Assembly: GCA_943846685.1 (NCBI GenBank)
Contig: OX044363.1
Coordinates: 1,765,386 to 1,829,385, forward strand
Direction of reading: 5' to 3'
DNA from: an uncultured Pseudomonadales bacterium
Lineage (GTDB): Bacteria > Pseudomonadota > Gammaproteobacteria > Pseudomonadales > Porticoccaceae
Length of the DNA stretch: 64,000 nt
The notes below the pieces were generated by a model. That model was not told the DNA's origin. It ran no database searches and saw only the letters and a program-made list of their open reading frames with translations. The number at the start of each line of letters is the position of its first letter. Within the stretch, counting starts at the first letter, position 1. This document shows, piece after piece, positions 8,158 through 63,660 of the stretch. The position numbers were made by a program, and so were the translations under genes.

Positions 8158-8187
8158 GAGATAACCCTCAGATAAAAATTAAAATTG

Positions 8188-12723: not shown

Positions 12724-12760
12724 TCACCTCAATCCTAAACAATTATTTATGTGCAGTAAT

Positions 12761-16742: not shown

Positions 16743-17660
<918 letters not shown>

Positions 17661-17697
17661 TTAATCCGTTTTCAAACTTCCATTTTTAACTACAGTT

Positions 17698-18027: not shown

Positions 18028-18042
18028 AACTTTTCCTCCTGA

Positions 18043-18054
18043 CAGGCTACCGCA
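18043..18054 (-). promoter_or_regulatory. ops-like (RfaH loading) element
   Basis: TGCGGTAGCCTG vs consensus GGCGGTAGnnTG, immediately upstream of the AGGAGG RBS; rfaH is encoded in the same region. Confidence 0.55.
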
Positions 18055-18209
18055 GGAGCCGGTCATGAGCTCCTGCTTTTATATGACTTGGGTCTGTGTT
18101 TTGACCCGATCGTACAGTCCGTGAACGATGTTTTAAAAGTAGACCAAACTGGTGCAGTTGCCAGTTTATTTGCCGATTTAATTAACTGTTGTTATGCCGT
18201 TGTTATAGA

Positions 18210-19169
18210 TCAGTATTCATTGGGGGTTTTATTGCTTTTTGGCTGCCGGCCATAGTGCATCACTAATACTGCAAGTATTGATAGCATGGCGCCCAAGAGT
18301 ACGGCTAATACACAGATAAGTGCTCTTTTCGGGGTCGACTTTTCCTCTGGCACCATGGCTGGGTTTACGGTAACAAAGGCATATTCTGGGCTGGCTTCGG
18401 CGAGCATTTTGTTTTTTATCTGTTCTTCAATCACTTGATAAAACACTTCTTTCATGCCGGCGATGGCGGTTTTCTCTATCTGCGCTTCTAAATATTCAAT
18501 ATTGCTGTTGGTCTGTCCCAGTTTTCTGGTGCGCATATAGTCGTTAATGGTAGTGATATAGAGGTCTACCCATTGTTTGGCGAGTATTGGGGAATAATGT
18601 TCGATGGATATAGAGATCATGCCTGATGTTTTGTCGGTGGTGACGACTAGGCGCTCGGAAAACTCTTTATACAGTTCCCAGCTGGTGGGGTCGATGGTTT
18701 TACCTGCTGGTGGATTTCTTACCCAGTGTTTTTGCTGGCTGTCGTAGAGGCTGCTGTCATAGCTGAGTTGGTTGATTTCTCTGTCCCACCCGTCGGCGGC
18801 AAAGATTTCTGCAGCGAGGTTGTTGGTTTTTATAAATTGCTCAATAAAGCTCCAAGATTGCATTATTTCCATGGCTGCTTGGGCTTCTCCTCCCTCGTCT
18901 GAAGGGGCTTTGATTCCGGCTAGGGAGGCGAGCCCACCAAGCTGTGAGCTCATGGCGCCTAGCATGGAGGTGCTGCCACTTTGGGCTGGGGAGACTACGG
19001 CTGTGGCTTGGTATTGATTGGGGATTAGCAGTACGACAATCACTGCTATTACGGCGAATAGGCTGGTGACGGTGAGGATGTTTTTTTTGCCTGACCAGAG
19101 TACGGATGCGAGTTCTCGTAGGTCTATTTCATCGTCGGCTGGTTGGTTTAGGTGCATTTCATTTTGCAT
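18210..19169 (-). CDS. wzz: Wzz/FepE chain-length determinant (copy 1)
   Basis: DEIDLREL..LW, two terminal TM helices, PEEKSTPKRALI. ATG at 19169 has an AAGGA RBS; the ORF-track extension to 19247 is repeat-derived. Confidence 0.9.
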   Translation of the reverse strand: MQNEMHLNQPADDEIDLRELASVLWSGKKNILTVTSLFAVIAVIVVLLIPNQYQATAVVSPAQSGSTSMLGAMSSQLGGLASLAGIKAPSDEGGEAQAAMEIMQSWSFIEQFIKTNNLAAEIFAADGWDREINQLSYDSSLYDSQQKHWVRNPPAGKTIDPTSWELYKEFSERLVVTTDKTSGMISISIEHYSPILAKQWVDLYITTINDYMRTRKLGQTNSNIEYLEAQIEKTAIAGMKEVFYQVIEEQIKNKMLAEASPEYAFVTVNPAMVPEEKSTPKRALICVLAVLLGAMLSILAVLVMHYGRQPKSNKTPNEY

Positions 19170-19200
19170 GGTTGTATTCCTTTGTTCTTGATCCTTGGTA

Positions 19201-19380
19201 TAGACCCCAGCCTTCGCTGGGGTGACGTTCCGTTGTTGGGGTGACAACTCTCATGTTATTTCGACTAGCGGGAGAAATCTTATGGAGGTCCCTCGTCGCT
19301 TCGCTCTGTCGGGATGACAGTGTTAATAGAGTGCTCTGTCGGGATGACAGTATTGACAGGGTGCTCTGCTGGGATGACAG
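19201..19380. repeat. cluster of REP-like palindromes and a 30-bp tandem repeat
   Basis: Hairpin ACCCCAGC-CTTC-GCTGGGGT (19204-19223); GTTATTTCGACTAGCGGGAGAAATCT (19255-19280); 36-bp element 19285-19320; GCTCTG(TC/CT)GGGATGACAG x3 with a 30-bp period. Confidence 0.85.
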
Positions 19381-20392
19381 TGGGTTGTAAGCATTGTGCT
19401 TCCAGTGTTTTGGCTATGCCTGTCTCGAAGGTTTCCTGTGGTTTCCAGCCTATCTCTCTGGCTATTTTTTCTGCGTTTATGGCGTATCTCCAGTCGTGGC
19501 CGGGTCGGTCGGCGACGAAGCTAATCAGTTTTCGGTGGGGGGCGGCAGCTGGGTTTTGTTGGTCCATCAGGTCGCAGATGGTGCGGCAGATATCGATATT
19601 GGCCCATTCGTTGATACCGCCAATATTGTAGGTTTCACCGAGTGTGCCCTTGCGCACTACGGCATCAATGCCGGAGCAGTGATCTTCGACATACAGCCAG
19701 TCGCGAATATTGCTGCCGTCGCCATAGATGGGTATCTGCTGTTGCTGTTGGCAGGCTCTTATGACGGTGGGGATAAACTTTTCGGCGTGCTGACAGGGGC
19801 CGTAGTTATTCGAGCAGTTGCTGGTGGTGACGGGTAAGCCATAGGTGTGGTGCCAGGCTCTTACCAGATGGTCTGAGCTGGCTTTTGAGGCGGAGTATGG
19901 CGAGTTGGGTGCGTAGGCGGTGGTTTCTGTAAATGCCGGGTCTGTGAGCTTTAGGGTGCCAAAGACTTCATCGGTGGAGATATGGTGAAAACGGCATTGC
20001 TTGTTATCGAGACCGTTGGTTTGTTGCCAGTAGCTTCTTGCTGCTTCGAGTAGTGCAAAGGTGCCGATTACATTGGTTTGTATAAATTCACTGGGGCCGC
20101 TGATGGATCGGTCGACATGGCTTTCAGCGGCGAAGTGCACGAGGGTATCTATTTGATGTTGCTCGAGCAGTTTGGCGATTAATGTTTGGTTGCAGATATC
20201 GCCTTGCACAAAATGGTGGCGGGTTTTATCTGCCAGTCCGTCTAAGTTGTCCATTGAGCCGGCGTAAGTAAGCTTGTCGAGATTAACAATGTTTACGTCG
20301 GGGTATTTGCCGAGCATATAGCGGACGTAGTTGCTGCCTATAAAGCCTGCGCCGCCGGTGACGAGGATATTGCGTGGTTGATACTCAGTCAT
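19280..20392 (-). CDS. rmlB: dTDP-glucose 4,6-dehydratase (copy 2) with repeat-derived C-terminus
   Basis: [36 protein letters not shown]. Ends VIPAEH..VIPTEH..VIPTERSDEGPP, encoded by the repeats. Confidence 0.93.
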   Translation of the reverse strand: MTEYQPRNILVTGGAGFIGSNYVRYMLGKYPDVNIVNLDKLTYAGSMDNLDGLADKTRHHFVQGDICNQTLIAKLLEQHQIDTLVHFAAESHVDRSISGPSEFIQTNVIGTFALLEAARSYWQQTNGLDNKQCRFHHISTDEVFGTLKLTDPAFTETTAYAPNSPYSASKASSDHLVRAWHHTYGLPVTTSNCSNNYGPCQHAEKFIPTVIRACQQQQQIPIYGDGSNIRDWLYVEDHCSGIDAVVRKGTLGETYNIGGINEWANIDICRTICDLMDQQNPAAAPHRKLISFVADRPGHDWRYAINAEKIAREIGWKPQETFETGIAKTLEAQCLQPTVIPAEHPVNTVIPTEHSINTVIPTERSDEGPP

Positions 20393-21278
20393 GGTCTTGC
20401 AGGGCTCCTATGGTTTCATTGAGGCTGTCTTGCCATGGCTTGATAGTTAGGCCAAAGGTGTTTTCCAGTTTGCTGGTGTCAAGCTCTGAGTTGGCGGGCC
20501 GTTGGGCATGGGTGGGATATTCGCTGCTGGGTATTGGCTGCAGGTCGCTGACTAGCAGATGATTGCTCCAGTAGTTTTTATCGAGACTGCGGGCCTGCGC
20601 AAAGATTGCCTGTGCAAAGCTGTACCAGCTGAGTGCTTGGGGCTGGGCGAGGTTGTAGATGCCCCAGTGGTTTTCGATTTTTGGCAGTATCTGCAGTATC
20701 AGGCGGACAATTTCCCTGGCGGAGGTTGGCTTGCCTATCTGGTCGTCGACAACGTTCATTTTTTCGCGCATGGAGCCAACATGCAGCATGGTTTTGACAA
20801 AGTTGTGGCCGTACTCAGAGAATACCCAGCTGGTGCGAAAGATCAGGTGTTTGCTGTGTATCTGGGTAATGGCTTTTTCTCCGGCGAGTTTACTGGCGCC
20901 GTATATTCCCAGTGGGGCTGTTGGGTCATCTTCGAGCCAGGGGCCCTGTTTACTGCCGTCAAAGACATAGTCGGTGGAGAAGTGGACTAGGGGGATATCC
21001 AGTCGTTTGCAGACTTCGGCGAGGTTGGCTGGGCCGGTTTCATTGACCAGATAGGCGTTTTCTTTTTCAGATTCAGCGAGGTCTACCTGTGTGTAGGCGC
21101 TGGTGTTGATGACAAAGTCTGGGCGCTCGCGGGCTATCACTGTTTGGGCTTCGTCGACACAGGTGACGTCTAGGTCGCCGCGGCTATAGGCTGAGAATTG
21201 AATGTCTCTGTTGGCTTTTAGTTCGCTGACAAAGGCTTTGCCGAGTTGGCCGGCGGCTCCGGTGATCAGTAGCTTCAT
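20385..21278 (-). CDS. rmlD: dTDP-4-dehydrorhamnose reductase (copy 2)
   Basis: GAAGQLG, AYTQVDLAE, STDYVFDG, YGASK. Confidence 0.95.
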   Translation of the reverse strand: MKLLITGAAGQLGKAFVSELKANRDIQFSAYSRGDLDVTCVDEAQTVIARERPDFVINTSAYTQVDLAESEKENAYLVNETGPANLAEVCKRLDIPLVHFSTDYVFDGSKQGPWLEDDPTAPLGIYGASKLAGEKAITQIHSKHLIFRTSWVFSEYGHNFVKTMLHVGSMREKMNVVDDQIGKPTSAREIVRLILQILPKIENHWGIYNLAQPQALSWYSFAQAIFAQARSLDKNYWSNHLLVSDLQPIPSSEYPTHAQRPANSELDTSKLENTFGLTIKPWQDSLNETIGALQDHD

Positions 21279-21847
21279 AACTTTGACCCCGGATATAAGT
21301 CTTTAACTTGCTCTTTAAACAGTTCTGCAAAGCTCTGCCCTGCTCTATCTTTATCGGAAAGTATCGGGTTGGTTATCGGCCAGTCGATATTTAATTGCGG
21401 GTCATTCCACAGCAAGCAGCCTTCGTCGCTGGGGTCGTAGTATTCGGTGCATTTGTATTCAAAGTCGGCGCTGTCGGAGGTGACCACAAAGCCATGGGCG
21501 GTGCCCGGGGGCAACCAGAATTGACGGTGATTTTCTTCGGATAGCCAGACGCCGTGCCATTTCCCAAAGCTGGGTGAGTCTTTGCGCAGGTCGACGACTA
21601 CATCAAATACTTCGCCGCGCACAACTCTGACTAATTTGCCCTGGGGTTTGGTTTTCTGAAAGTGCAGCCCACGCAGTACGCCTCTGGATGAGCGCGAGTG
21701 GTTGTCTTGAACAAATGGTAGGTCGTTATGAATTTGTTTCTGGTAGCGCTGGGCTTGATAGGTTTCAAGAAAGAAGCCTCTCGCGTCGCCATAGACTTTG
21801 GGTTCAATTACTACGGCGCCTTGTACGGCGGTTTCAATTATATTCAT
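21275..21847 (-). CDS. rmlC: dTDP-4-dehydrorhamnose 3,5-epimerase (copy 2)
   Basis: [33 protein letters not shown]. Confidence 0.96.
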
Positions 21848-22740
21848 TGGTAGCCCTCGACAACTTTTTGCAGGTATTGGCCGTAGCCGGTTTTGTGCAG
21901 TGCGGCAGCTTGTTTCTGCAGACGTTGCTCACAGATCCAGCCCCGCTGATAGGCTATTTCTTCGAGACAGGCGACTTTTAGTCCCTGGCGGTGCTCGACG
22001 GTTTGGACAAATTGACTGGCTTCAAGCAGTGAGTCATGGGTGCCGGTGTCGAGCCAGGCAAAGCCGCGCCCGAGTTGACTGACATGCAGGTCACCACGCT
22101 CTAGGTAGACGTTGTTGATATCGGTTATTTCGAGTTCGCCGCGGGCTGAGGGTTTGATACTTTTGGCGATTTCAATAACGTCATTGTCGTAAAAGTAGAG
22201 GCCGGTGATGGCGTATCGGGATTTTGGATTTTGCGGTTTTTCTTCAATGCTGATGGCTTTGCCTTGTGCATCAAATTCAACCACACCAAAACGTTCGGGG
22301 TCGTTGACATGGTAGGCGTAGATGGTTGCGCCCTGATCTCGTTGTGTGGCATTTTCGAGCTTGTCGGTGAAGTGTTGGCCGTAAAAGATATTGTCGCCAA
22401 GTACTAGGGCTACGTTATCGTCGCCAATAAACTCTTCGCCGATAATAAAGGCTTGGGCTAGTCCGTCTGGGGATGGCTGTTCGGCATAGCTGATGCTGAC
22501 GCCAAATTGACTGCCGTCGCCAAGCATACGCTTGAAGCCGGGCAGGTCGACGGGGGTTGAGATGATTAATACTTCGCGGATCCCGGCCAGCATTAATACT
22601 GACAGGGGGTAGTAGATCATCGGCTTGTCGTAGACTGGCAACAGCTGCTTTGAGGCTGCCAGTGTGATCGGATGCAGACGTGTGCCTGAACCGCCGGCGA
22701 GGATAATCCCTTTGTAGTTCTTCCTTTCAGTTTCTTCCAT
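21844..22740 (-). CDS. rmlA: glucose-1-phosphate thymidylyltransferase (copy 2)
   Basis: [39 protein letters not shown]. Confidence 0.97.
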
Positions 22741-36057: not shown

Positions 36058-37959
36058 TTAGGCTGGCCCCTGTGTACAAAAACTATCCGATCGCTTTTCC
36101 TGACGGCTAAAAAACTTGGTGTTTTTATAGGGTAACTTCATAAAGCCCGACACCCCCAGACCATCAATCTGATCAAGATTGGTCAGTATCTCACTGAGAC
36201 AGCGGCGAAACTCATGCTCCCTAGATTTATCCAGCAGGGTGAAATAGTTATGAATTTTTAAATCCTTTTCCACCGCCTCAAAAATAATGCAACCGGTGTG
36301 ATGTATCTGATTCATAACGGCCAGTATCTGCATAATTGATTCTGGCAACTGTAGCCTCTCATCTGGATCACTGCCATCTTCAAAGTAGGAGTGCAGGCGG
36401 GTTTTGTTATCGTCATTATCTGAAGGGCTAATCTCTGAAGGACTTATCTCTGAAGGCAAGAGCTCGCCTATATCAAAGGAAATCTGCAAATCCGAGTCGA
36501 CCAAAAATTTTTGCTGGGCATTTTCACGCTCTATATGCAGGGTTTTTCGCGCATCAAACATACAGCTTTTAAACACCCCTTTTTTATTGATCGCACGACC
36601 CAGAGATACCACATTGTTAATTGCATTGATCAACGCTGGAGCATATTCAGCATCGTAGAGATTGAGATTGGAGTCTATATAGACACCACCATCATCCCAT
36701 CTAACCGCCAGACCGCCCGCGACGGGATAACGGCCTAGATGGGTAACCGCAATCACAAAGGCCTTTTCTGTATCACCCATACCGCTGAGATAATTTTTAT
36801 ACTCACCATAGCCCCCCAGACTTCCCACCAGTGGATGCTTGGCATAGCGGGGCTGAGCTTCAAACACGTCGGAACCAATCTCCTGACGGAGAAAACCCTT
36901 GCGCGAGCTGTACACCACTGTCTCTACCGTCACTTCACTGGAGGTAATCTGCAGTGGAATAAGTGACTCTTCCTGAGCCCTTATGGCGGGCTCTGAGCGA
37001 CTGACAATATGCTTCATATAGCGCATATTCTCGAAAAAGTAGTCCCCTGCTCTGCAGCGAGTATCGGCATCGTCATCGAGCATGCCGGCCAGGGTTCTGG
37101 CAAATTCTATCGGCAGCCCCAGAGACTCCAGAGTGATAACCTTTTTACCAAAACGACTGCCCTGCCCTGAGGCCAATGCGTAGAGAGTTCCGGCCAGACC
37201 CTGTTCATCAAAGCGCGGTGTGGAGCAGGCTCCCTGCAGCTGCTCTTCGCCGATAAAATATATATCGCCGAGTTTTGCATTGCTCTTTTGGTATTCCATA
37301 TTGATGGCGTCTATACCGAGGCTATCAATGCGATCACCGAGATGATTCTCCTGGGCAACCACCGCTGCACCCCAATCAATCAACGAGACTGTTTCAGAGT
37401 CGGGATCAAACATTATATTTGATGGCTTTATATCGCCATGAACTATAGTTGAACGGCCGGAATTATTGCGCAGACGCAACAGAATATCTGACATCTGTGC
37501 GGCAATTTTCAGTACCAGCCGTGGTTCGAGTTTGCCCACCTGACGGGCATAATCTTGCAGGTTAATCCCCGGTGCGCGGGACATCATCAATATGGATTGG
37601 CCGCGCACATGTTGAAAGGCGATATATTCAGGAATGCCCTGATGGGCAACCTGACTGAGCATAAAGCCCTCTTCTTCGAGGCGATCTTTAATATGCTGTG
37701 GCAGTGTGATACGCGAGAATTTAAAGACATATTGCTGTGTCTGCGAATCATCTTCACCGCCACTGGTACCGGCAAAAACAAAGCCGTAGGCGCCGTTGCC
37801 TATTAGCTCAATATTGCTGTATCCGAGACGCTCTAGCTGCGACTCACAGAGCTCTAACCAACTCTTTAGCTTGCGTGCATCTTTTTGACTGAGCAGATAA
37901 AACGATTGCTCTTCATTGATATAGAAATGCTGTAGGTTTTTGCTCTCATGTAAACTCAC
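36058..37959 (-). CDS. Hanks-type Ser/Thr protein kinase domain protein with long C-terminal domain
   Basis: IGNGAYGFVF Gly-loop, VFK lysine, helix-C EE, HGDIKPSN catalytic loop, DWG; GAGG RBS before GTG. Confidence 0.85.
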   Translation of the reverse strand: MSLHESKNLQHFYINEEQSFYLLSQKDARKLKSWLELCESQLERLGYSNIELIGNGAYGFVFAGTSGGEDDSQTQQYVFKFSRITLPQHIKDRLEEEGFMLSQVAHQGIPEYIAFQHVRGQSILMMSRAPGINLQDYARQVGKLEPRLVLKIAAQMSDILLRLRNNSGRSTIVHGDIKPSNIMFDPDSETVSLIDWGAAVVAQENHLGDRIDSLGIDAINMEYQKSNAKLGDIYFIGEEQLQGACSTPRFDEQGLAGTLYALASGQGSRFGKKVITLESLGLPIEFARTLAGMLDDDADTRCRAGDYFFENMRYMKHIVSRSEPAIRAQEESLIPLQITSSEVTVETVVYSSRKGFLRQEIGSDVFEAQPRYAKHPLVGSLGGYGEYKNYLSGMGDTEKAFVIAVTHLGRYPVAGGLAVRWDDGGVYIDSNLNLYDAEYAPALINAINNVVSLGRAINKKGVFKSCMFDARKTLHIERENAQQKFLVDSDLQISFDIGELLPSEISPSEISPSDNDDNKTRLHSYFEDGSDPDERLQLPESIMQILAVMNQIHHTGCIIFEAVEKDLKIHNYFTLLDKSREHEFRRCLSEILTNLDQIDGLGVSGFMKLPYKNTKFFSRQEKRSDSFCTQGPA

Positions 37960-54984: not shown

Positions 54985-57561
54985 CTACAGCCACAGCATA
55001 CAGCCGAGCTCAAAGGGGTGGCTGAGCAGTTCGTGATAGGGATACAGGCGCAGGCGATACTCTTTTAAGCCGCACTCGGTTGGTGTCCAGTCCACCGAAA
55101 AAGTCGCGTCGCCAAAGCTTTGGTCTCCACTCTGGTCTCCACGGTTCTGATCAGCAGCCTGAAATGCCAATCTAATACAGCTGTCGGCGCAGAATTGATG
55201 TTGGGCTATTTTTCCCACCAGGCATTCGACCAATATATCTGCGGTATCCAGTCCATTCAGATTGACCTTAACCCTCAGGGATACTGATTGGCGAAGATTT
55301 ATCTCGGTCACAGGCTGGTCAATACGCCTAGCACTGACCCCCGACCAACAGTCTAGTACACGCTGTTTCCAGTCAGCCAAAAGTTCTGCCTGTCCCGATT
55401 GTGCAAGCCTGCTGCCCTGCTTTGCTGCTGGCAGGTAGGCCTGTTCGATATAGTCGTGAACCATACGGCGAGCGCTGTATTTGGCAATAATCGATGCCAT
55501 GGAGGCCTTGGAAAACTCAATCCATTGCTGGGGATATTGGTCCGTATCGCGCTGCTGCCATACGGGGATAATCTGGTGTTGAATAATATCCAGAATATCA
55601 ATCGCCTCCTGTCGATCGCGGTATTCCGGATCGCAATCCGGATCATGGGGCGCTACAGCCCAACCATTTTTACCGTTGTAGCCCTCGGCCCACCAACCAT
55701 CGCGAATACTCAGGTTGACCACCCCGTTCACCCCGGCTTTTTGGCCTGAGGTGCCACAGGCCTCCATTGGATACTGCGGGGTGTTTAACCAGATATCACA
55801 GCCGGAAACCAACATTCTGGCCAGGGAAATATCATAGCCTTCGAGCAGGATTATCCTGCCGATAAATTCCGACTCCAGGGATTTTTCATAGAGCATTTTA
55901 ATAAGCTCCTTACCGCCATCATCACTGGGATGTGCCTTTCCGGCGAAAACAAAGATAACCGGCCACTGGGGGTCACCCACCAGTTCAGCAAGGCGCTGCA
56001 TTTCCAAAAACAACAGCCCGGCGCGTTTGTAAGAGGTAAACCGACGCGCAAAACCGATCACTAAAGCCTTCTCATCGGTCTGGCACAGGTAACGGATGCT
56101 GCGCTCTATCAGTGCCTCACTCAAACCATTGCGATGATACTGTATACGCAGGCGGTCGGTAATTTCAGCTAACAGTGATTGTTTGATTGCCCGGTGCACT
56201 GACCACCAGGTTTGGCTGTCGATATCCTCCAGTGCTTTCCAGTAGTCAGGCTTGTAAAAATTCTCGCGCCAACCCGCTAGACGCCGATCAAACAATTCGC
56301 TCCACTGCTTGTGTAAAAAGGTCTCTACATGAATACCATTGGTGATATAGGAAATAGGGTTTTCATCAGCGGGAACCTGCGGCCATAAATACTGCTCCAT
56401 TTGCGAGGCGACGCCGCCATGGATGCGGCTAACGGCATTGTGAAACCGCGACCCACGCAGGGCCAGTGCCGTCATATTGAACTGATGTTGATTATCGATT
56501 GACTTGCCCAGGGCCATAAACTGGTCCATATCAATCTCCAGCTCTTGCAGGTAGTGGTTGAAATAATGGATTATCAATTCGGGATCAAAACGATCATGGC
56601 CGGCGGCAATCGGGGTATGCATGGTAAAGACCGAGGCCCCGGCGATTTCTTCCAGGGCAGCATTCAGGGGCTTGCCTGTTTTGCGCAACTGGAGAATTCG
56701 CTCAAACACAGAAAAAGCCGCATGCCCCTCGTTGATATGCCAAACCGTTGGCTCTATTCCCAGCGCAGCCAGTGCGCGTACACCACCTATACCCAGTATC
56801 ATCTCTTGCTGTAAGCGCATCTTACTATCACCGCCGTAGAGCTTACGGGTAATCAGGCGATCATCTCGGCTGTTCTCGTCAATATCCGCATCCAGTAATA
56901 CCAGCTGTATACGCCCTACCGATACTCGCCACAGCTTTACAGCGATATCTTCATCGGCGGAGGGAACGCTGATAATCACGGGATTCCCCTGATCATCGAG
57001 CCACTGGGTAATCGGTGAATCGACAAACGACTGAAACTGATAGTGGAATATTTGCTGTCCCCGAGCATCGATAAGTTGGGTAAAGTAACCCTCGTGATAG
57101 AGTAATCCGACGGCGACAAAGTTGAGCCCAATATCACTGGCCGCCTTGCAGTGGTCACCGGCAAGAATCCCCAGCCCACCGGCATAAATTGGCAGGCTTT
57201 CATGAAAACCGTACTCTGCACAGAAGTATGCGACCAGTGTTTTGTCTGGCAAATTTTGTGCAAGCTTCTGTTGCTCCCCCTCAGCCTGGCAGTAATCACG
57301 CGACCAGTGTAAAACCTGGTTATATTTTTCCAGATAGGCATCATCCTGCGCTGCAGCATTCAACAACTGCTCATCAATCCGCCGCAGAAACAATTTCGGA
57401 TTCTGTTTGCAGGCAAGCCACAGCGGCCGATCCAACAGGGCGAAAAGCTCGCGTATTGAACCCTGCCAGCTGTACAAAAGATTTTCGGACAACGCCTGTA
57501 GTCCCGCTATTTTATCGGGAATCTTGGGTTTGACTTCAAGGCTGTATTTGCTGGTATTCAT
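54985..57561 (-). CDS. glgP: alpha-glucan phosphorylase 1 (GT35, ~858 aa)
   Basis: AYFCAEYG..LPIYAGGLG.LAGDH, H.NEGHA, TNGIH, GFARRF..YKR, PLP-Lys EACGTSGQK. Real start is the ATG at 57561, not 57837. Confidence 0.93.
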   Translation of the reverse strand: MNTSKYSLEVKPKIPDKIAGLQALSENLLYSWQGSIRELFALLDRPLWLACKQNPKLFLRRIDEQLLNAAAQDDAYLEKYNQVLHWSRDYCQAEGEQQKLAQNLPDKTLVAYFCAEYGFHESLPIYAGGLGILAGDHCKAASDIGLNFVAVGLLYHEGYFTQLIDARGQQIFHYQFQSFVDSPITQWLDDQGNPVIISVPSADEDIAVKLWRVSVGRIQLVLLDADIDENSRDDRLITRKLYGGDSKMRLQQEMILGIGGVRALAALGIEPTVWHINEGHAAFSVFERILQLRKTGKPLNAALEEIAGASVFTMHTPIAAGHDRFDPELIIHYFNHYLQELEIDMDQFMALGKSIDNQHQFNMTALALRGSRFHNAVSRIHGGVASQMEQYLWPQVPADENPISYITNGIHVETFLHKQWSELFDRRLAGWRENFYKPDYWKALEDIDSQTWWSVHRAIKQSLLAEITDRLRIQYHRNGLSEALIERSIRYLCQTDEKALVIGFARRFTSYKRAGLLFLEMQRLAELVGDPQWPVIFVFAGKAHPSDDGGKELIKMLYEKSLESEFIGRIILLEGYDISLARMLVSGCDIWLNTPQYPMEACGTSGQKAGVNGVVNLSIRDGWWAEGYNGKNGWAVAPHDPDCDPEYRDRQEAIDILDIIQHQIIPVWQQRDTDQYPQQWIEFSKASMASIIAKYSARRMVHDYIEQAYLPAAKQGSRLAQSGQAELLADWKQRVLDCWSGVSARRIDQPVTEINLRQSVSLRVKVNLNGLDTADILVECLVGKIAQHQFCADSCIRLAFQAADQNRGDQSGDQSFGDATFSVDWTPTECGLKEYRLRLYPYHELLSHPFELGCMLWL

Positions 57562-57607
57562 CGGAAAATTAACAGTGCAATCCAAGGGAGTATTTCTAGC
57601 ATTCCCC

Positions 57608-57648
57608 AATTTAAACAACGCTGCCGAAGTTAACTTGATCATTGTCAA
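57608..57648 (-). promoter_or_regulatory. FNR-type box with class II -10 for glgP1 (divergent from fixL-like gene)
   Basis: TTGATCATTGTCAA (57635-57648, 9/10); TAAATT on the minus strand at 57608-57613, 28.5 bp from the box centre. Confidence 0.72.
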
Positions 57649-57771
57649 TAGCTTAGTATTTACTGGCTCAACAGGTGAAAACATAAGCTTTAATCTATAG
57701 TAGTCTAATCTGTGTTGCGGGCTGCCAGGTTGACGATTGGAAATAAAGTGAACCTCTGGATGACTTACTAA

Positions 57772-59286
57772 ATGAATTATTTGGACTTGCCAAAGCCGGC
57801 TACTCTTATACTGGACGCTGGTGGAAATATTGAACATATCAGTAGCTCTACCTGTGAACTATTGGGGTACCAACCGGCCGAACTACAATCTCTCAATTGG
57901 ATAGATATCTGTGTTCCGCCCCTGTTCCAGATAAAAACCAAACGTATTTTTGATGCAGTTTTATCGGGCAAAAAAGATCTTCCCGACCAGATTATCTTCC
58001 CCGTCCTGAGTAAATCCGGCGATCAACATCTATTCTCCTGGCACAGTGAACCGCGCTTCGATGCCAGCGGCAGGGCCATTGGTTCTATTACTACCGGTAT
58101 AGCAATACCTGAGGACGCCGTTAAGCAAGAAAACTCTTACTTGCAGACCGCCGCTCGTAATCAGGCAGTACTGGATAATGCGATTGAGGCGATTATCAGC
58201 ACCAATAACCGCGGCATCATTACCCATGCCAACAAAACTACCGAGAGTATTCTCGGTTACAAACCAAATGAGTTGCTGGGCAAAAGGATTACCTGCCTGA
58301 TTCCTATGAATATTATTAGCGACTGCGCCAGGGAAATAAGATTCCATATGCAATCCACAGATACCAATACGGTTATCAACAGAGAAGTGGAAGCCAGACA
58401 TAAAGACGGCAGGAAAATCCCTGTCGAACTGACCGTCACCGAAATTACCATTGGTGGCACATTCAGCTTCACCGGCATTATGCGTGATATCAGTGAGCGC
58501 AAACTCAGCGAAGCGCGTTTAAAGAAAAGTAAGGAAGAGGTTCAGCAGGCCCGCGACCGCCTGACACAAATGGATCGGCTGCATCTCGCCAGCGAAATGT
58601 CTGCCGGACTTGCCCATGAGCTCAACCAGCCGTTAAGTGCAATTTCAATGTATGCCCAGGGCTGCCACAACTTGCTTAACAATAGTGAACTGGATCGACA
58701 TAAACTGAGTAATACCCTGCTGCGCATTGACACACAGGCACAGCGGGCTGGTGAAATTATTCGCAATATCAGGGCGCTGATGGAAAGACAGGAACTTCAT
58801 CATCAACTCACCGATATCAATACGCTTATTCGCAGCACAATTGAACTGGCCGAGGAAGATTATGAGTGCAGGGCAATCGATTTCGAATGTATTTTTTCAC
58901 ATTCCCTACCCCAGGTTGAAATTGTCTATGGACAGATACAGCAGGTATTACTGAATTTAATTCGCAACGCCTGTGACGCGATGATTGCTATTCCTGTCGA
59001 AGAAAAGTCCATCAGCATTATCAGCGAACAATATTCTGACAGTTTTATCAAAGTATCTGTCAGGGACAGGGGCAGCGGAATTGATATTCAGCATAGGGAT
59101 AAGATTTTTCAGAATTTTTTCTCAACAAAAAATAGTGGTATGGGTATGGGCCTGGCGATTAGCTATTCGATTATTACCAGTCATGGCGGAGTGATGGATA
59201 TTAACCCTGAATACTCGGATGGCGCTGAATTTTTCTTTACATTGCCAATCATGACCAACCTTAGGAAACCATCCCATGGAGAGTAA
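57772..59286 (+). CDS. fixL: FixL-like PAS-PAS histidine kinase
   Basis: Two PAS domains, RHKDG..IPVELTV.E..FTGIMRDISER, H-box LAHELNQPL, N-box QQVLLNLIRNA, G boxes DRGSG/GMGMGL. Confidence 0.78.
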   Translation: MNYLDLPKPATLILDAGGNIEHISSSTCELLGYQPAELQSLNWIDICVPPLFQIKTKRIFDAVLSGKKDLPDQIIFPVLSKSGDQHLFSWHSEPRFDASGRAIGSITTGIAIPEDAVKQENSYLQTAARNQAVLDNAIEAIISTNNRGIITHANKTTESILGYKPNELLGKRITCLIPMNIISDCAREIRFHMQSTDTNTVINREVEARHKDGRKIPVELTVTEITIGGTFSFTGIMRDISERKLSEARLKKSKEEVQQARDRLTQMDRLHLASEMSAGLAHELNQPLSAISMYAQGCHNLLNNSELDRHKLSNTLLRIDTQAQRAGEIIRNIRALMERQELHHQLTDINTLIRSTIELAEEDYECRAIDFECIFSHSLPQVEIVYGQIQQVLLNLIRNACDAMIAIPVEEKSISIISEQYSDSFIKVSVRDRGSGIDIQHRDKIFQNFFSTKNSGMGMGLAISYSIITSHGGVMDINPEYSDGAEFFFTLPIMTNLRKPSHGE

Positions 59287-59878
59287 AAATATCGTCTATA
59301 TTGTCGATGATGATCCCGATGTTTTAGACGCTACCTGTATGCTGCTGGAATCTACCGGGTTGGAAACACAACGCTTCAATTCCGCTATGTCCTTTCTCAA
59401 CAGTATTAACCAGAACTCTCAGGGTTGCATAGTACTGGACGTGCGTATGCCGAATATGAGCGGGCTAAAACTACAGAGCGAGATAATGCGTCGAGAAATA
59501 TGTTTACCGATAATATTTATCACCGGTCACGGCGATGTTCCCATGGCCGTTGAAGCCATGAAGAATGGTGCCCTGGAGTTTTTCCAAAAACCCTTTCGCG
59601 ACCAGGAGTTTATTGACTGCGTTTACGGCGCACTGGATATCAATCAACAGAGCCTCAACAACTTAAACCGTGTGCATTCAATACAGCGCCGAATAGCCAC
59701 CCTGACCAAACGTGAACAGCAGATTATGCAGTACATGACAGAGGGTCATATCACTAAGGTTATTGCCGATAAACTAGCCATAAGTCCACGCACAGTGGAA
59801 ACTCACAGGGCGCGGGTAATGGAAAAAATGCAGGCCAAAACCCTCGCCCAGTTAATTCATATGGTAATGGAAACATAG
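59276..59878 (+). CDS. fixJ: FixJ-like response regulator (REC + LuxR HTH)
   Basis: IVDDD, CIVLDVRMP, IIFITGHGDVPMAVEAMK.GA.EF..KPF, LTKRE..ISPRTVE.HRARVMEKM; overlaps the kinase stop. Confidence 0.9.
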   Translation: MESKNIVYIVDDDPDVLDATCMLLESTGLETQRFNSAMSFLNSINQNSQGCIVLDVRMPNMSGLKLQSEIMRREICLPIIFITGHGDVPMAVEAMKNGALEFFQKPFRDQEFIDCVYGALDINQQSLNNLNRVHSIQRRIATLTKREQQIMQYMTEGHITKVIADKLAISPRTVETHRARVMEKMQAKTLAQLIHMVMET

Positions 59879-59910
59879 GTACACCAATCAAACATAAATG
59901 CTCTGCAACT

Positions 59911-60702
59911 CTACCCAATGCTACGGCAACTTAGCTGTTCACCGTAGCCCACTTTACTGCCGAGATATGCACCAGTAGCCATACTGTGCAAACCATCAAT
60001 ATCGACAATATGCAACCGGTGACGCTGGGCAACAATAAGCCCCTGCTCTTCCAGACGTTTGAACAAGCGACTTACCGTCTCTACTGCCAGACCGAGATAG
60101 TTGGCAATATCATAGCGAGCCATAGGCAATTTAAACTCATAGGGTGACTGGCGACGCTCATACATTGACTGGGATATATCGAGCAAAAAACTCGCCAGCC
60201 GCTGTTCAGCTCTAATCTTGGTTAAAGTCATCAACAGATGATTGGCTTTGGACATCATGCCGCTAACATTGCAAATTAATTCATCGTAGAGACCCCTGTT
60301 ATCGCGCAGGGAAACCTCTTTAAATAATTGAAAGGGCAGAGTACAAACACTGGAAGTTTCCAGCGCCTCTACCTCACGTATATGCCTGCCGGGATCAATG
60401 CCATCTATGCCAAGAATATCGTGTGAGAAATGAAATCCTGTAACCTGCCTCTCACCGGTTTCATCGGTAAAACAGGATTTAAATGAACCTGAACGAACTA
60501 GGTAAAGTGATTGAAATTTATCACCCTGAAGGAATAAATTCTGTCCTTTACGCATTGGTTTTTCATGCGTGACAAGACCCTCAACATTATTCGCTTCACT
60601 GTCGCTAAACACCCGCATAAGACATGACTTGCGAGTCTGGCAATGTCTACAAGATATCTTGTCTATATTACTTACGCTTATACCACTATTTATTAGCTTC
60701 AT
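59911..60702 (-). CDS. fnr: FNR-type Crp-family regulator with [4Fe-4S] ligands
   Basis: C18-x2-C21-x5-C27 plus central SSVC Cys; recognition helix LGLAVETVSR. Confidence 0.88.
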   Translation of the reverse strand: MKLINSGISVSNIDKISCRHCQTRKSCLMRVFSDSEANNVEGLVTHEKPMRKGQNLFLQGDKFQSLYLVRSGSFKSCFTDETGERQVTGFHFSHDILGIDGIDPGRHIREVEALETSSVCTLPFQLFKEVSLRDNRGLYDELICNVSGMMSKANHLLMTLTKIRAEQRLASFLLDISQSMYERRQSPYEFKLPMARYDIANYLGLAVETVSRLFKRLEEQGLIVAQRHRLHIVDIDGLHSMATGAYLGSKVGYGEQLSCRSIG

Positions 60703-60775: not shown

Positions 60776-61099
60776 TTAAGCGGCAAAGACACCAGAAGTA
60801 TTGAAATAATCCGGCCCATGTCCTTTTTCACCCGTCCACATAAGCCCCGCCCGATCATCTTCCGTCCATATAACCAGCGCACTCATACCAGAGTAATTCT
60901 TCATTTCACCCTTGCAGTTGGTCATTGCCTGTAAAAACATATCTTCTCTAAGGCAGCCGTGACAATTGCTGATACCAAAGCCGCTGACACCTATATTACT
61001 TATCGGAAAGGCACCTATCCTGACACCTGAAAGATACAGCTCAACAGTTGTGCTGGAATCCTTGCGATCCCCTATACGATGTTCCATATCGCCTCCCAT
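60776..61099 (-). CDS. stand-alone PilZ-like domain protein
   Basis: RIGDR (RxxxR) followed ~22 aa later by NIGVSG (variant of D/NxSxxG); C-terminal VIW..AGL.W. Confidence 0.6.
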   Translation of the reverse strand: MGGDMEHRIGDRKDSSTTVELYLSGVRIGAFPISNIGVSGFGISNCHGCLREDMFLQAMTNCKGEMKNYSGMSALVIWTEDDRAGLMWTGEKGHGPDYFNTSGVFAA

Positions 61100-61386: not shown

Positions 61387-61818
61387 ATGAATGAAAACCA
61401 GAGGAAAAAATTGACCAGAAAACCTTCTCTCACTGAAAAAAAAATCAACAAACAGACCTCCGTGGACATAGTGGCCAGCGACGAAGTAATCCAGAAAAAA
61501 GTTGTTGATTTATTATCTTTGATCAATATAAAAACTAACATTCATGTTAATGGCAGCAGCTTGCTAAAGAAAAAAAGACGCCTTAAAAGCGATTGCTTGA
61601 TCATTGAAACCAGGCTTGATGATATGCGTGGAATTATGCTTTTTAAAAAGTTACTGGTGATGTGCAAGAACACGCCGCCGACGATTTTTATCGGTGCGCG
61701 ACCTGGCAGTATCAACGAGGCTATAGAAACCATAAAACTTGGCGCCATTGACTATATTGAAAAGCCCTTCTCATCAAGACGACTGATCACCTCGGTTAAT
61801 CTTGCCCTTGGTACTTAA
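61387..61818 (+). CDS. atypical single-domain receiver (FixJ-type REC, phosphoacceptor Asp replaced by Glu)
   Basis: CLIIETRL vs FixJ CIVLDVRM; TIFIG vs IIFIT; GAIDYIEKPF retained; acidic pocket reduced to VASDE. Confidence 0.7.
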   Translation: MNENQRKKLTRKPSLTEKKINKQTSVDIVASDEVIQKKVVDLLSLINIKTNIHVNGSSLLKKKRRLKSDCLIIETRLDDMRGIMLFKKLLVMCKNTPPTIFIGARPGSINEAIETIKLGAIDYIEKPFSSRRLITSVNLALGT

Positions 61819-61849: not shown

Positions 61850-61891
61850 TTGACCAATATCAACATCCAGCTGATTTGGATTATCTAGCCT
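61850..61891 (+). promoter_or_regulatory. FNR-type box with class II -10 for glgP2 and P-type ATPase
   Basis: TTGACCAATATCAA (61850-61863, 9/10); TAGCCT at 61886-61891, 29.5 bp from the box centre. Confidence 0.72.
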
Positions 61892-61962: not shown

Positions 61963-63660
61963 TTGATTGATCAAAATATCCGTATTGCCTACTTTAGTAT
62001 GGAGATAGCCCTGCACTCGAGTATGCCAACCTATGCCGGGGGTCTGGGAATACTCGCTGGCGATACACTGCACTCGGCAGCAGATATGCATGTCCCCATG
62101 GTGGGAATCTCACTGCTCCCCCGCCGCGGCTATTTTCAACAACAGCTGAGTGACGATGGCTGGCAAACCGAAAACAGCGTCAGCTGGACGGTAGAGGACT
62201 ATCTGCAGGAAGTGGGCCCGCGCACCGCAATTAGTATTGAGGGCCGCGAGGTGCATATCCGCGCCTGGAAATATCAACTCAACAGCCGCAATCAAAACAG
62301 CGTCGATATTTACTTTCTCGATACAGACCTGGAAGAAAACAGCGACTACGACCGTTCACTCGCCTATTTCCTCTATGGCGGTAACAGCCACTACCGGCTC
62401 TGCCAGGAAACTGTTCTGGGTATTGGCGGCGTGCGTATGCTCGCCGCACTGGGTTACAGCGGATTACAGCGCTACCACCTCAATGAGGGACATGCGAGCT
62501 TGTTGATTCTCGAATTACTCGAACAGAAGCGTCGCCAGAATCAGGGCAGTGATGATCCTGAAACTGTGCGCGATCTCTGTGTATTCACTACCCATACACC
62601 AGTGCCCTCAGGGCATGACCAGTTCCCCCTGAGTATGGTCTCCGACGTTCTTGGTGCGGAATATTCCCTGGCCGGCTGTGAGGATAATTTCTGTTTTGAC
62701 CACAAACTGAATATGACCTACCTCGCCCTCGCCAACAGTCGCTATATCAACGGGGTGGCAAAAAAACACAGTCAGTTATCGCGGCAAATGTATGCCGGCT
62801 ACTGTGTCGATTCTATTACCAATGGCGTGCATGCAGAGACATGGACATGTCAGCCCATGCAGCAATTGTTTGACCAGTATATTCCCGGCTGGCAACTCGA
62901 CAACCTGAGCTTGCGGGGAGCACTGAATATTCCCGTTGAGCCAATTCAAAAGGCACACCAGCTGGCAAAGAAAAACCTGTTAAATCATATTAACCAACTG
63001 CCCGGCACAACGCCTGAAAAACAGATGGAGGAGGATATTTTCACCATTGGTTTTGCCCGCCGGTCAACCCTCTACAAACGCCCGGATCTGTTTTTTACCG
63101 ACCTCAAGCGCCTGCAAGCTATTGGAGAGAAATTTGTTCGCCTGCAGATTATCTATGGGGGAAAGGCACATCCAAATGACAACCAGGGCAAGCTGCTTAT
63201 CCAAAAAATTATCTCTGTAGCCAACAGCCTCAATAAACATATCAATATTGTCTACCTAAATAACTACGATATCGCTCTGGCCAAACTGATGACCAGTGGC
63301 TGCGATCTCTGGCTGAACACCCCGCAGCCACCGATGGAGGCCTCTGGCACCAGTGGCATGAAGGCCGCCCTGAATGGCGTTCCCTCTCTAAGCACGATGG
63401 ATGGCTGGTGGCTGGAAGGCTGTATTGAGGGGTTAACCGGTTGGGGAATAGGCAACACAGCAGTTTCAACCACTTCGCCCCCACAGATAACTCAGGAGGC
63501 CTGCTCGCTGTACGACAAGCTGGAGCAGGTTATCCTGCCTCTCTACTACCAGAACCAGCCCGGCTACCTGGAGGTTATGCGTCACACCATTGCCCTGAAT
63601 GGCTCCTATTTCAACACTGAGCGAATGCTTAACCAGTATGTAACCAAGGCCTATTACTAA
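61963..63660 (+). CDS. glgP: alpha-glucan phosphorylase 2 (short GT35, 565 aa)
   Basis: AYFSMEI..TYAGGLG.LAGD, HLNEGH, TNGVH, GFARR..YKR, PLP-Lys EASGTSGMKAALNG. Confidence 0.93.
   Translation: MIDQNIRIAYFSMEIALHSSMPTYAGGLGILAGDTLHSAADMHVPMVGISLLPRRGYFQQQLSDDGWQTENSVSWTVEDYLQEVGPRTAISIEGREVHIRAWKYQLNSRNQNSVDIYFLDTDLEENSDYDRSLAYFLYGGNSHYRLCQETVLGIGGVRMLAALGYSGLQRYHLNEGHASLLILELLEQKRRQNQGSDDPETVRDLCVFTTHTPVPSGHDQFPLSMVSDVLGAEYSLAGCEDNFCFDHKLNMTYLALANSRYINGVAKKHSQLSRQMYAGYCVDSITNGVHAETWTCQPMQQLFDQYIPGWQLDNLSLRGALNIPVEPIQKAHQLAKKNLLNHINQLPGTTPEKQMEEDIFTIGFARRSTLYKRPDLFFTDLKRLQAIGEKFVRLQIIYGGKAHPNDNQGKLLIQKIISVANSLNKHINIVYLNNYDIALAKLMTSGCDLWLNTPQPPMEASGTSGMKAALNGVPSLSTMDGWWLEGCIEGLTGWGIGNTAVSTTSPPQITQEACSLYDKLEQVILPLYYQNQPGYLEVMRHTIALNGSYFNTERMLNQYVTKAYY

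Follow-up and report, generated by a model that had tools for sequence, protein, structure and literature searches.

FixL of B. japonicum and S. meliloti is the textbook heme-based O2 sensor kinase. It senses O2 with a heme-PAS domain and has FixJ as its partner, and a FixL annotation is usually taken to mean heme-based O2 sensing. The B. japonicum protein (BjFixL) is about 505 aa long, and FixL constructs without the heme domain are kinase-on. Some other sensors ligate heme through a thiolate, as in the PAS domain of RcoM and in CooA and NPAS2, and the ligand Cys is conserved among the orthologues of these proteins. Precedents for thiol or metal chemistry in PAS domains are the PAS cysteines of ArcB and Zn binding by the PAS domain of WalK.

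Not all FixL-type PAS domains carry the heme ligand. In the FixL/DosP-type PAS 'cluster 3', the F-alpha His is replaced in about 40% of members (Xing et al. 2023, PMC10468136). In Caulobacter crescentus, the autophosphorylation of FixL is inhibited by FixT, a protein that consists of a single receiver domain (PMC7078487). The literature search returned nothing specific on His-less FixL or on FixL in SAR92/Porticoccaceae.

The kinase described here is encoded in a window of 64,000 nucleotides of Porticoccaceae DNA. It is a FixL by position that has lost the heme ligand and the pocket signature; its catalytic core is intact, its neighbors are conserved and the constraint on the former heme segment is altered. 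Like the FixL of B. japonicum and S. meliloti, it has the PAS-A/PAS-B/DHp/CA architecture, the same length (504 aa) and a FixJ in the same operon. Unlike them, it has Cys in place of His200 and replacements at Tyr203, Ile215 and Gly219, its FG loop is one residue shorter, its host is a gammaproteobacterium, and its neighbor from the CRP/FNR family is an Fe-S FNR rather than a Cys-less FixK.

The fixL locus and its orthologues

The features of the locus are as follows.

54985 to 57561, minus strand: alpha-glucan phosphorylase gene (glgP), divergent from fixL
57635 to 57648, no strand: FNR/FixK-type box TTGATCATTGTCAA in the glgP-fixL divergent spacer
57772 to 59286, plus strand: fixL-like sensor histidine kinase (PAS-A/PAS-B/DHp/CA, 504 aa) without the proximal heme His
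59276 to 59878, plus strand: fixJ-type response regulator (REC and LuxR/GerE HTH, Asp55; Pfam, NCBIfam)
59911 to 60702, minus strand: FNR-type regulator with Cys18, Cys21, Cys27 and Cys120 in the Fe-S ligand pattern (Pfam, NCBIfam)
60776 to 61099, minus strand: conserved small protein of about 103-107 aa with a PilZ-like RxxxR motif
61387 to 61818, plus strand: single-domain pseudo-receiver, paralogue of the FixJ receiver (PF00072, E = 9.5e-13)
61850 to 61863, no strand: FNR/FixK-type box upstream of a second alpha-glucan phosphorylase gene (61963-63660)

In the 504-aa kinase, Pfam recognizes PAS_3 (22-104), PAS/PAS_9 (129-242), HisKA (274-336) and HATPase_c (388-493). In its kinase core it resembles the FixL portion of YF1 (4gcz, E = 4e-46), and all catalytic motifs are intact, including the N, G1, F and G2 boxes. 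The best NCBIfam model is sens_FixL_Rhizob at 242 bits, where the equivalog cut-off is far higher (850). JGI names proteins of this His-less group 'FixL', and the gene is found in metatranscriptome contigs. The start of fixJ overlaps the fixL stop by 11 nt, which bears out the pairing with FixJ proposed in the first-pass annotation; the FixJ model of NCBIfam scores 228 bits, just below its cut-off of 255. The alpha-glucan phosphorylase probably starts at Met93 of the mechanical 950-aa ORF. A scan for promoter consensus sequences near fixL gave 7 sites against 9.5 expected. The small protein has no Pfam match even at E = 5, a word-based homologue search found 5 close relatives only, and an AlphaFold2 model from the 5-sequence alignment reached pLDDT 41; its gene is followed by a terminator-like hairpin.

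Three His-bearing loci (P0028, P0030 and P0031) have the order GH57-malQ-gap-DUF4136-glgP / fixL-fixJ / fnr-PilZ-like, as in the window, and their FixLs are 44-46% identical to the query. The host of P0031 is a Porticoccaceae MAG. Because the gene order is the same, the query is the positional orthologue of these heme-bearing FixLs, and the ligand was lost in place. The His-bearing orthologues (also P0026 and P0027) share the locus and PAS-A with the query, and their PAS-B is nearly identical to it outside the F-helix and FG loop; unlike the query, they keep HD.YI..YL...IIG..RE. Members of cluster 3 without the F-alpha His likewise combine a FixL-type PAS fold with another residue at that position, but they are mostly anonymous repeats in multi-PAS proteins, whereas the protein here is a syntenic bona fide FixL-FixJ orthologue. 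The loss of the His in this FixL can be dated within one bacterial family.

Residue 185 and the heme pocket of PAS-B

The features of the kinase gene to which the comparison refers are listed below.

57772 to 58122, plus strand: PAS-A, residues 1-117, common to the His-bearing orthologues
58123 to 58497, plus strand: PAS-B, residues 118-242, homologous to the FixL heme-PAS by sequence and structure matches
58306 to 58380, plus strand: F-alpha helix and FG loop, residues 179-203, the one-time heme-binding segment and fastest-evolving part of the protein
58324 to 58326, plus strand: Cys185 codon TGC, aligned to His200 of BjFixL (HMMER and MAFFT alignments)
58372 to 58374, plus strand: Val201 codon GTT, at the Gly217 column that is near-invariant in heme FixLs; a natural V/G polymorphism
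58381 to 58383, plus strand: Arg204, aligned to the distal Arg220 of BjFixL (HMMER alignment)
58615 to 58617, plus strand: His282 of the H-box (AHELNQPL), the predicted phospho-acceptor

The first-pass annotation had aligned the second PAS domain by eye with the FixL heme-PAS and placed a Cys on the heme-ligating His and an Arg on the distal Arg, and formal comparison reproduces that alignment. PAS-B matches the BjFixL heme-PAS structures by sequence with E = 1e-10, so the similarity is far above chance, and Foldseek on the PAS-B model returns BjFixL PAS structures as top matches (TMq 0.80). The HMMER pairwise alignment ('lipmniisdCareirfhmqstdtntv.inRev' in the query, 'lmpepdrsrHdsyisryrttsdphiigigRiv' in BjFixL) pairs C185 with the His of FixL and R204 with its Arg, at a spacing of 19 against 20 residues, and a MAFFT alignment of 122 sequences gives identical columns for both pairs. 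The spacing and the TGC codon are thus as first described. The BjFixL numbering was anchored on 1y28, titled 'R220A', which deviates exactly at the Arg aligned to R204. Another structure, 2cmn, is the R206A mutant; its sequence departs from wild-type BjFixL at position +6 relative to the His, where it has Ala. AlphaFold2 models residues 118-251 with pLDDT 88.7 and an F-alpha helix at 179-193, which puts C185 in mid-helix. Cys185 therefore fills the column of the proximal His; H192, raised as another candidate for the ligand position, aligns to Tyr207 instead. Two other histidines were rejected as axial ligands: H152 is also present in the His-bearing P0026, and H210 lies in a column that is R/K/H in heme FixLs (His in 8/81).

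The Cys is no misreading. Three independent runs, including one metatranscriptome, yielded contigs with the same sequence across 57600-59900, the exact protein is present on 51 contigs, and C185 is constant in 13 full-length population variants. With the reading frame intact, all catalytic motifs present and dN/dS at 0.07-0.12 across most of the gene, there is next to no chance that the Cys is an artefact of sequencing or assembly or that the gene is a decaying pseudogene.

Close homologues also lack the His, against the possibility that all homologues carry it, and the Cys is not conserved among them. In sub-clade A, to which the query belongs, Cys occupies residue 185 in 5 of the 6 sequence clusters; the exception, P0004, is 86% identical to the query and has Phe (TTC instead of TGC). 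The sister sub-clade B (20 clusters, 56-61% identical) has no Cys at this position (Ser in 12, Gly in 3, Tyr in 2, and otherwise Lys, Arg or a gap). Beyond A and B, His is found in 81 of 94 other homologues and first appears at 52% identity. A, B and A+B are each monophyletic in 100/100 bootstraps of an NJ tree, so that all His-less Porticoccaceae FixL of A+B form one monophyletic clade. In one B sub-lineage (P0012, L012, L039 and L040) a His lies one residue N-terminal of the canonical column. A wider background was drawn from a PAS-B search of 1.84 billion representative proteins as 1275 FixL-type PAS domains from 150 proteins; giant multi-PAS repeats inflate the scores of this search, and the clade was not mapped by it. 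The His is missing from 42% of the sampled domains, and Cys stands in the proximal-His column in 5 (0.4%), the query among them; the remaining 4 are without the heme signature.

The rest of the pocket has changed with the ligand, and the signature HD.Y(I/L)..Y ... (I/V)IG(I)GR is not present in the query. Tyr203, found in 75/81 His-FixLs, is Glu, Asp or Asn in the His-less clade, Ile215 is Thr or Gly, and Gly219 is Ser or Asn; the query has Glu, Thr and Asn at these positions and a polymorphic Val at Gly217, and of these residues only Arg220 is kept. The distal Arg, retained in the query as first noted, is itself not a constant of the clade: it is present in 79/81 His-FixLs and in 16/26 His-less members, the other 10/26 having Gln or Lys. 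At the columns of the propionate partners R206 and H214 the residue varies.

The F-alpha and FG-loop segment is the most conserved region in His-FixLs (identity 0.50). Between A and B its identity is 0.14, against 0.62-0.67 in PAS-B, DHp and CA and 0.49 in PAS-A; within sub-clade A it is 0.63, against 0.79-0.95 elsewhere. Its dN/dS in sub-clade A is 0.26-0.44, which is 3-4 times higher than in the rest of the gene (0.07-0.12). Since dN/dS is below 1, the segment is still under purifying selection and is not junk. A different pattern is conserved here in each sub-clade: A has 'IPMNIISDCAREIR' and B has 'NIWLLLPDAEFGGS..DIS.YL.AGNNGGGFN'. Many of the hydrophobic residues of the pocket are still there (I173, L176, I177, I189, V206, L220, V222 and F233), so the pocket cavity could persist. 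Sub-clade B has gained bulky Trp or Phe at pocket positions (N189W, R197F and I218F), changes that look like cavity filling.

Signatures of other cofactors were sought in PAS-B. There is no E-alpha motif GXNCRFLQ of the kind that carries the flavin-Cys photoadduct in LOV domains, and the LOV Cys of YtvA (4gcz) aligns to I173, in the local sequence GKRITCLIP. The four-Cys motif of Fe-S PAS domains (NreB/AirS type) is absent, the only PAS-B cysteines being C175 and C185, and C175 is also present in His-bearing FixLs (P0026-28, P0030 and P0032). A Trp on F-alpha is the primary FAD determinant of PAS domains (PMC10468136); residues 118-245 contain no Trp anywhere, and with it the FAD-PAS signature of NifL, MmoS and Aer is missing. 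There is no Cys-Pro motif at C185, where the sequence is C-A. PAS-A shows neither a cofactor signature nor a significant sequence match in the PDB and, being equally present in His-bearing orthologues, was rejected as a new cofactor site.

Explanations for the loss of the histidine

On balance, the protein is probably a Porticoccaceae FixL orthologue that would have lost heme binding and would still work as a FixJ kinase. In the ancestor of one clade within the Porticoccaceae, the proximal His and several heme-pocket residues of PAS-B would have been replaced; the F-helix and FG-loop segment would afterwards have drifted under relaxed constraint, with Cys185 as the residue where one small sub-lineage happened to end up. 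The Cys itself is probably incidental, and the natural C185F relative hints that it is dispensable. Strong purifying selection acts outside the segment, on PAS-A, the PAS-B beta-sheet and N-cap, the coiled-coil linker, the H-box, the ATP-binding boxes and FixJ, and the kinase is therefore predicted to be still working for its translationally coupled FixJ. PAS-B would no longer sense O2, and by analogy with heme-domain-less FixL constructs the default state would be kinase-on. The first-pass annotation had left four options, namely a sensor built on a thiolate-heme, on a metal or on a redox-active thiol, or a kinase that has no cofactor and whose signal is not O2; the comparison favors the last and speaks against Cys185 as a replacement ligand.

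Three other readings give PAS-B or its Cys a function. It is rather unlikely that PAS-B has been re-purposed, its remodelled pocket binding another small molecule that is neither heme nor held by Cys, so that the fast evolution of the F-helix and FG loop would track ligand differences between sub-clades. Xing et al. suggest a different sensory specificity for His-less cluster members (PMC10468136), and the dN/dS of the segment well below 1, the separate pattern of each sub-clade and the retained hydrophobic residues lining the pocket are consistent with such a role. However, because A and B are just 14% identical in the segment, they have no common set of ligand contacts; the FAD Trp, LOV and four-Cys signatures are absent, and the apparent cavity filling in sub-clade B also argues against a ligand. 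That the Cys sub-clade has a thiol-based sensor, in which Cys185 binds a metal or is reversibly oxidized and thereby switches the kinase, possibly with Asp184, Glu188, His192 or Cys175, is improbable. D184, C185 and H192 lie on one predicted helix face (i, i+7) and are replaced together in P0004 (by G, F and L), a joint loss compatible with the disappearance of a small functional site as a whole, though it is one sequence and an anecdote; the presence of C185 in 5/6 clusters and all 13 population variants points the same way, in a set of about six informative sequences only. Against this, P0005 has Tyr at H192 and yet keeps the Cys, E188G occurs naturally among the population variants, C175 is not specific because His-bearing FixLs also have it, and the sister sub-clade has the same cassette without the Cys.

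The leading idea of the first-pass annotation, that Cys185 ligates heme as a thiolate in the manner of P450 or CooA on a FixL scaffold, is very improbable. The Cys does lie exactly in the proximal F-helix column, the distal Arg is present in the query, and thiolate-heme sensors exist, with RcoM as a PAS example. Like RcoM, CooA and NPAS2, the protein has a Cys where a heme could be faced in the sensor domain; unlike in those proteins, the Cys is not conserved, being lost already at 86% identity and absent from all 20 sister clusters, and the pocket signature has otherwise disappeared as well, including Tyr203, Ile215, Gly219 and a constant partner at R206 or H214. The missing Cys-Pro motif, the rarity of Cys among FixL-type PAS domains, where its other carriers have no heme signature, and the relaxed constraint on the segment all count against it. 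It is unlikely that the Cys sub-clade senses through a thiolate-heme or a thiol/metal site, and there is a slim chance that in this sub-lineage an emptied pocket has become a Cys185 sensor (thiolate-heme, metal or redox-thiol, possibly with Asp184, Glu188 or His192 as partner residues) beside a newly evolved pseudo-receiver that would have taken over from heme as the controller of FixL.

FNR, the pseudo-receiver and the input to FixL

If FixL has indeed lost heme binding, the O2 signal probably enters via the adjacent FNR, as adjacency, motifs and analogy suggest. This regulator has an N-terminal C-X2-C-X5-C and a central Cys, a cNMP-like domain and HTH_Crp, and scores 187 bits with the NCBIfam Fnr model (cut-off 228). 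The 7 loci checked, His-less and His-bearing alike, all keep its four Fe-S cysteines (C18, C21, C27 and C120). The pattern TTGAY-N4-RTCAA occurs 6 times against 0.37 expected, with 5 sites intergenic within 43.6-61.9 kb, and FNR-type boxes precede fixL, glgP, glgC, gap, hsp20 and the second phosphorylase gene. The box upstream of fixL is present in 8/9 His-less loci. At no more than 1 mismatch it appeared specific to them, a notion that was dropped when the His-bearing loci were found to match at 2 mismatches (TTGAC-N4-GTCAA in the same glgP-fixL spacer), and the box is treated as ancestral. The locus also suggests that glycogen turnover in these bacteria is under FNR-type control.

A second input may come from the pseudo-receiver. 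Its acceptor position has changed from Asp to Glu (CLIIET) and the DD pair to SD, leaving a receiver fold without the phospho-acceptor Asp; the 7 genome sequences aligned all have the Glu, and so do all 20 orthologues from metagenomes (IIET). It resembles the receiver of FixJ most closely, with 64 bits in the NCBIfam FixJ model. Among genome loci that reach far enough, the gene is present in 7/8 His-less ones and absent from both His-bearing ones (L023 and L024), and all 10 metagenomic orthologues with upstream DNA adjoin a His-less FixL. Like the FixLJ-FixT system of Caulobacter crescentus, the locus thus encodes a stand-alone receiver-fold protein with a fixLJ/fnr(fixK) module; unlike FixT, this protein has a Glu acceptor, lacks the four-Cys Fe-S motif and is nearest to the FixJ receiver. 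By analogy, the clade-specific pseudo-receiver may modulate the FixL kinase and tune it as FixT tunes the FixL of Caulobacter.

An abundant marine lineage of the Porticoccaceae thus has an orthologous fixLJ-fnr module without the heme ligand, to which a pseudo-receiver has been added in most sampled loci. Predictions of O2 sensing made from a 'FixL' annotation would be wrong for these organisms. Nearly all the difference between His-bearing and His-less orthologues lies in a 25-residue segment, so that they constitute a natural swap experiment on what lets a PAS domain bind heme and on what a FixL kinase does without it.

Cys185 and the PAS-B domain

The reading frame at 57772-59286 (+) encodes a 504-aa product with the following Pfam domains.

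Residues 22-104: PAS_3
Residues 129-242: PAS/PAS_9
Residues 274-336: HisKA
Residues 388-493: HATPase_c

PDB searches matched the kinase core to the FixL part of YF1, a chimera (E = 4e-46), and the second PAS domain (PAS-B) to heme-PAS structures of Bradyrhizobium japonicum FixL (BjFixL; E = 1e-10). In the catalytic core, the H-box (His282) is intact, as are the N, G1, F, and G2 boxes. HMMER aligned the FixL proximal His with Cys185 (TGC, 58324-58326) and the distal Arg with Arg204, MAFFT placed both in the same columns among 122 sequences, and the HMMER alignment reproduced the ligand-to-Arg spacing (19 vs. 20 residues), all as the first-pass annotation had proposed. BjFixL numbering was anchored on 1y28, the R220A entry, whose difference from wild type falls on the Arg that aligns with R204; the R206A mutant 2cmn departs at +6 counted from the His. 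AlphaFold2 modeling of residues 118-251 (pLDDT 88.7) places the F-alpha helix over residues 179-193 with C185 in mid-helix, and the top Foldseek matches of the PAS-B model are BjFixL PAS structures (TMq 0.80). The Cys codon is not a sequence error: positions 57600-59900 are identical among contigs from three independent runs, one of them a metatranscriptome, and 51 contigs encode the exact protein.

The heme pocket across homologues

Residue 185 was surveyed in an alignment of the best 120 homologues. Cys is found in the query and in P0001, P0002, P0003, and P0005 (79-99% identical), while P0004 (86% identical) has Phe (TTC for TGC) together with D184G and H192L. The sister sub-clade B (P0006-P0025; 56-61% identical, marine, 20 clusters) has Ser (12), Gly (3), Tyr (2), Lys, Arg, or a gap. 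Conservation of the Cys in close homologues, a check raised by the first-pass annotation, is not general. The canonical HD.Y(I/L)..Y...IIGIGRE motif occurs in 81 aligned sequences from P0026 downward (<=52% identical). Sub-clade A (the query and P0001-P0005), sub-clade B, and A+B were each supported in 100/100 neighbor-joining bootstraps, and genome-collection matches place both sub-clades in Porticoccaceae MAGs. In P0012 of sub-clade B (loci L012, L039, and L040), two residues are inserted and a His precedes the canonical ligand column by one residue on the N-terminal side (PLEHYRATLWNYM); the nearest relative of this protein, P0010, carries Gln in place of that His.

His was present at the ligand column in 58% of 1275 FixL-type PAS domains taken from 150 representative proteins, in agreement with the roughly 60% that Xing et al. 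2023 (PMC10468136) give for the FixL/DosP PAS cluster. Since about 40% of that cluster is His-less, loss of the His is in itself unsurprising. Cys occupies the column in 5 of the 1275 domains, including the query, and the other four lack a heme signature.

The alignments show that the pocket signature around the former ligand is gone. Tyr203 (BjFixL numbering), found in 75 of 81 His-FixLs, is replaced by Glu in sub-clade A and by Asp or Asn in B, and in the His-less clade the Ile215 column has become Thr or Gly and the Gly219 column Ser or Asn. Arg220 is present in 79/81 His-FixLs vs. 16/26 members of the His-less clade, the rest having Gln or Lys; the distal Arg described as kept is therefore kept in the query (R204) but not across the clade. 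In the full-length alignment, the nearest His-bearing proteins (P0026 and P0027) are nearly identical to the His-less clade over PAS-B save for the F-helix and FG loop.

By mean pairwise identity, His-FixLs are most conserved in the F-alpha+FG segment (query residues 179-203; 0.50 vs. 0.42-0.48 elsewhere outside PAS-A), which in the His-less clade is the worst-conserved region. Between sub-clades A and B its identity is 0.14, compared with 0.62-0.67 for PAS-B, DHp, and CA and 0.49 for PAS-A; the kinase core and the FixJ partner are still tightly conserved. Within A the segment reaches 0.63 vs. 0.79-0.95 for other regions, and within B 0.60 vs. 0.75-0.88. In sub-clade A, dN/dS (Nei-Gojobori) is 0.26-0.44 across the segment vs. 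0.07-0.12 over the remainder of the gene. Constraint on the former heme-binding segment is, by these measures, relaxed about 3-4-fold yet non-neutral. The commonest polymorphism within the query's own species, V201G, falls in the column where heme FixLs have near-invariant Gly217; it is a natural T/G polymorphism at 58373, where the window has Val and Gly is the commoner allele among population variants. E188G is also seen, and C185 is constant across 13 full-length variants. An artefact or pseudogene is ruled out by the identical independent contigs, the number encoding the exact protein, and the low dN/dS.

The first-pass annotation had suggested a thiolate-heme, metal or redox-thiol sensor or a cofactor-less kinase, and the last is favored by the disappearance of the pocket signature. 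A thiolate-heme at Cys185 is very improbable given that the Cys is unconserved and the remaining pocket is lost. Somewhat less remote, but still doubtful, is a thiol or metal site limited to the Cys sub-clade, where C185 is locally conserved and D184, C185, and H192 are lost jointly in P0004, but only about six sequences bear on it. Re-purposing of the PAS-B pocket for another ligand would fit the residual purifying selection on the segment and is the least unlikely of these alternatives, but no contact set is common to A and B, and PAS-B, with no Trp, no LOV motif, and two Cys only, carries no signature of a known cofactor. Most likely, Cys185 is incidental.

The fixLJ-fnr locus

The window carries, in order, glgA, glgB, a CBS protein gene, glgC, GH57, malQ, gap, DUF4136, glgP(-), fixL, fixJ, fnr(-), a small ORF(-), a receiver-only gene, and a second phosphorylase gene. 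The order GH57-malQ-gap-DUF4136-glgP(-)-fixL-fixJ-fnr(-)-PilZ-like(-) recurs around the His-bearing P0028, P0030, and P0031 (44-46% identical), the last from a Porticoccaceae MAG. This shared order identifies the query, at the level of sequence and synteny, as a FixL orthologue in the same position as ordinary heme-type FixL, with the ligand lost in place inside the family. The fixJ start overlaps the fixL stop, and its product (REC + GerE, Asp55) is the FixJ-type partner. The convergent CRP-family gene fnr encodes Cys18, Cys21, Cys27, and Cys120, an FNR Fe-S pattern common to His-less and His-bearing loci.

The sequence TTGAY-N4-RTCAA occurs at 6 sites in the window vs. 0.37 expected (0/100 shuffles reach 6), and five of these exact sites are intergenic, within 43.6-61.9 kb.

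Putative FNR/FixK-type boxes
43598: before hsp20
48515: CBS gene-glgC spacer
53199: before gap
57635: glgP-fixL spacer
61850: before the second alpha-glucan phosphorylase

This excess suggests that the glycogen and glycolysis gene cluster is under FNR-type control. The fixL-upstream box is found in 8/9 His-less loci (<=1 mismatch), and a TTGAC-N4-GTCAA variant in the equivalent spacer of His-bearing loci indicates that it is ancestral.

Upstream of fnr, a small protein of about 103-107 aa (60776-61099, -), followed by a terminator-like hairpin (60784-60764), is conserved whether or not the FixL of the locus has the His. Its motifs are EHRxxxR (RxxxR) at the N-terminus and (N/D)IGxSG. Two relatives in His-bearing loci have a weak Pfam PilZ call, and one relative there (L025) has a canonical NxSxxG; the window copy has no Pfam match, and its AF2 model (pLDDT 41) is too low for use.

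A stand-alone pseudo-receiver (61387-61818, +) is paralogous to the FixJ receiver, with Glu at the acceptor position (CLIIET.LDDM) and SD replacing DD; pseudo-receivers with an acceptor Glu are a known class (PMC12632262). It also occurs at L001, L006, L008, L010-L012, and L035-L054. Of the His-less genome loci long enough to show the region, 7/8 have it (L009 lacks it), and it is missing from both His-bearing loci that extend far enough (L023 and L024). A metagenome scan gave 20 orthologues, all with IIET, beyond which the next-best matches were generic receivers (<=37% identity); a His-less FixL gene adjoins it in 10/10 with upstream DNA. Among the loci sampled, it was seen only beside His-less FixL genes.

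The fixLJ-fnr cassette is flanked by two phosphorylases. The mechanical ORF of the first, glgP (54985-57837, -; 950 aa), overlaps the fixL start; its orthologues are 856-862 aa long, so translation probably begins at Met93 (57561). Met52 or Met66 was picked by gene callers elsewhere; with either choice the FNR box would fall within the gene or at its start. The second (61963-63660, +; 565 aa) is shorter and lacks the DUF3417 N-terminal region that the first has; at L001 it is followed by a P-type cation ATPase. Elsewhere in the window, a 633-aa protein with a eukaryote-type Ser/Thr protein kinase domain (36058-37959, -) is encoded next to a 2-oxoacid dehydrogenase operon (E1 alpha, E1 beta, and E2) and a Glu/Leu/Phe/Val dehydrogenase with an Lrp/AsnC regulator. 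Base composition changes within 8000-22000: GC runs at 0.39-0.43 from about 8 to 18 kb and at 0.50-0.52 beyond, and GC skew, about -0.12 before roughly 18 kb, is about +0.17 after it, with the ORFs on the minus strand throughout. Sugar transferase genes are found at 414-2352. The 8-22 kb region may represent a polysaccharide gene cluster that was acquired.

Proposed signaling and classification

FixL truncations without the heme domain are kinase-on. PAS-B of the query probably neither binds heme nor senses O2 any longer, and by analogy this would leave the query kinase-on by default. Information on O2 would enter the regulon by way of the Fe-S FNR, a probable controller of fixLJ transcription as well. 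Modulation of the kinase may come from the pseudo-receiver, whose fold should dock on the FixL DHp as FixJ does, in the manner of Caulobacter FixT, which inhibits FixL autophosphorylation (PMC7078487). We hold the heme-less core of this account with somewhat better than even confidence and the modulator role with considerably less.

A literature search found no published description of His loss in a syntenic FixL-FixJ orthologue, of a FixL His loss placeable within a single bacterial family, or of a FixJ-derived pseudo-receiver accompanying His-less FixL in most sampled loci. By homology and synteny the query is a FixL-family kinase. It lacks the F-alpha His, the defining feature of that family, and for this reason its annotation as a heme O2 sensor is unwarranted.
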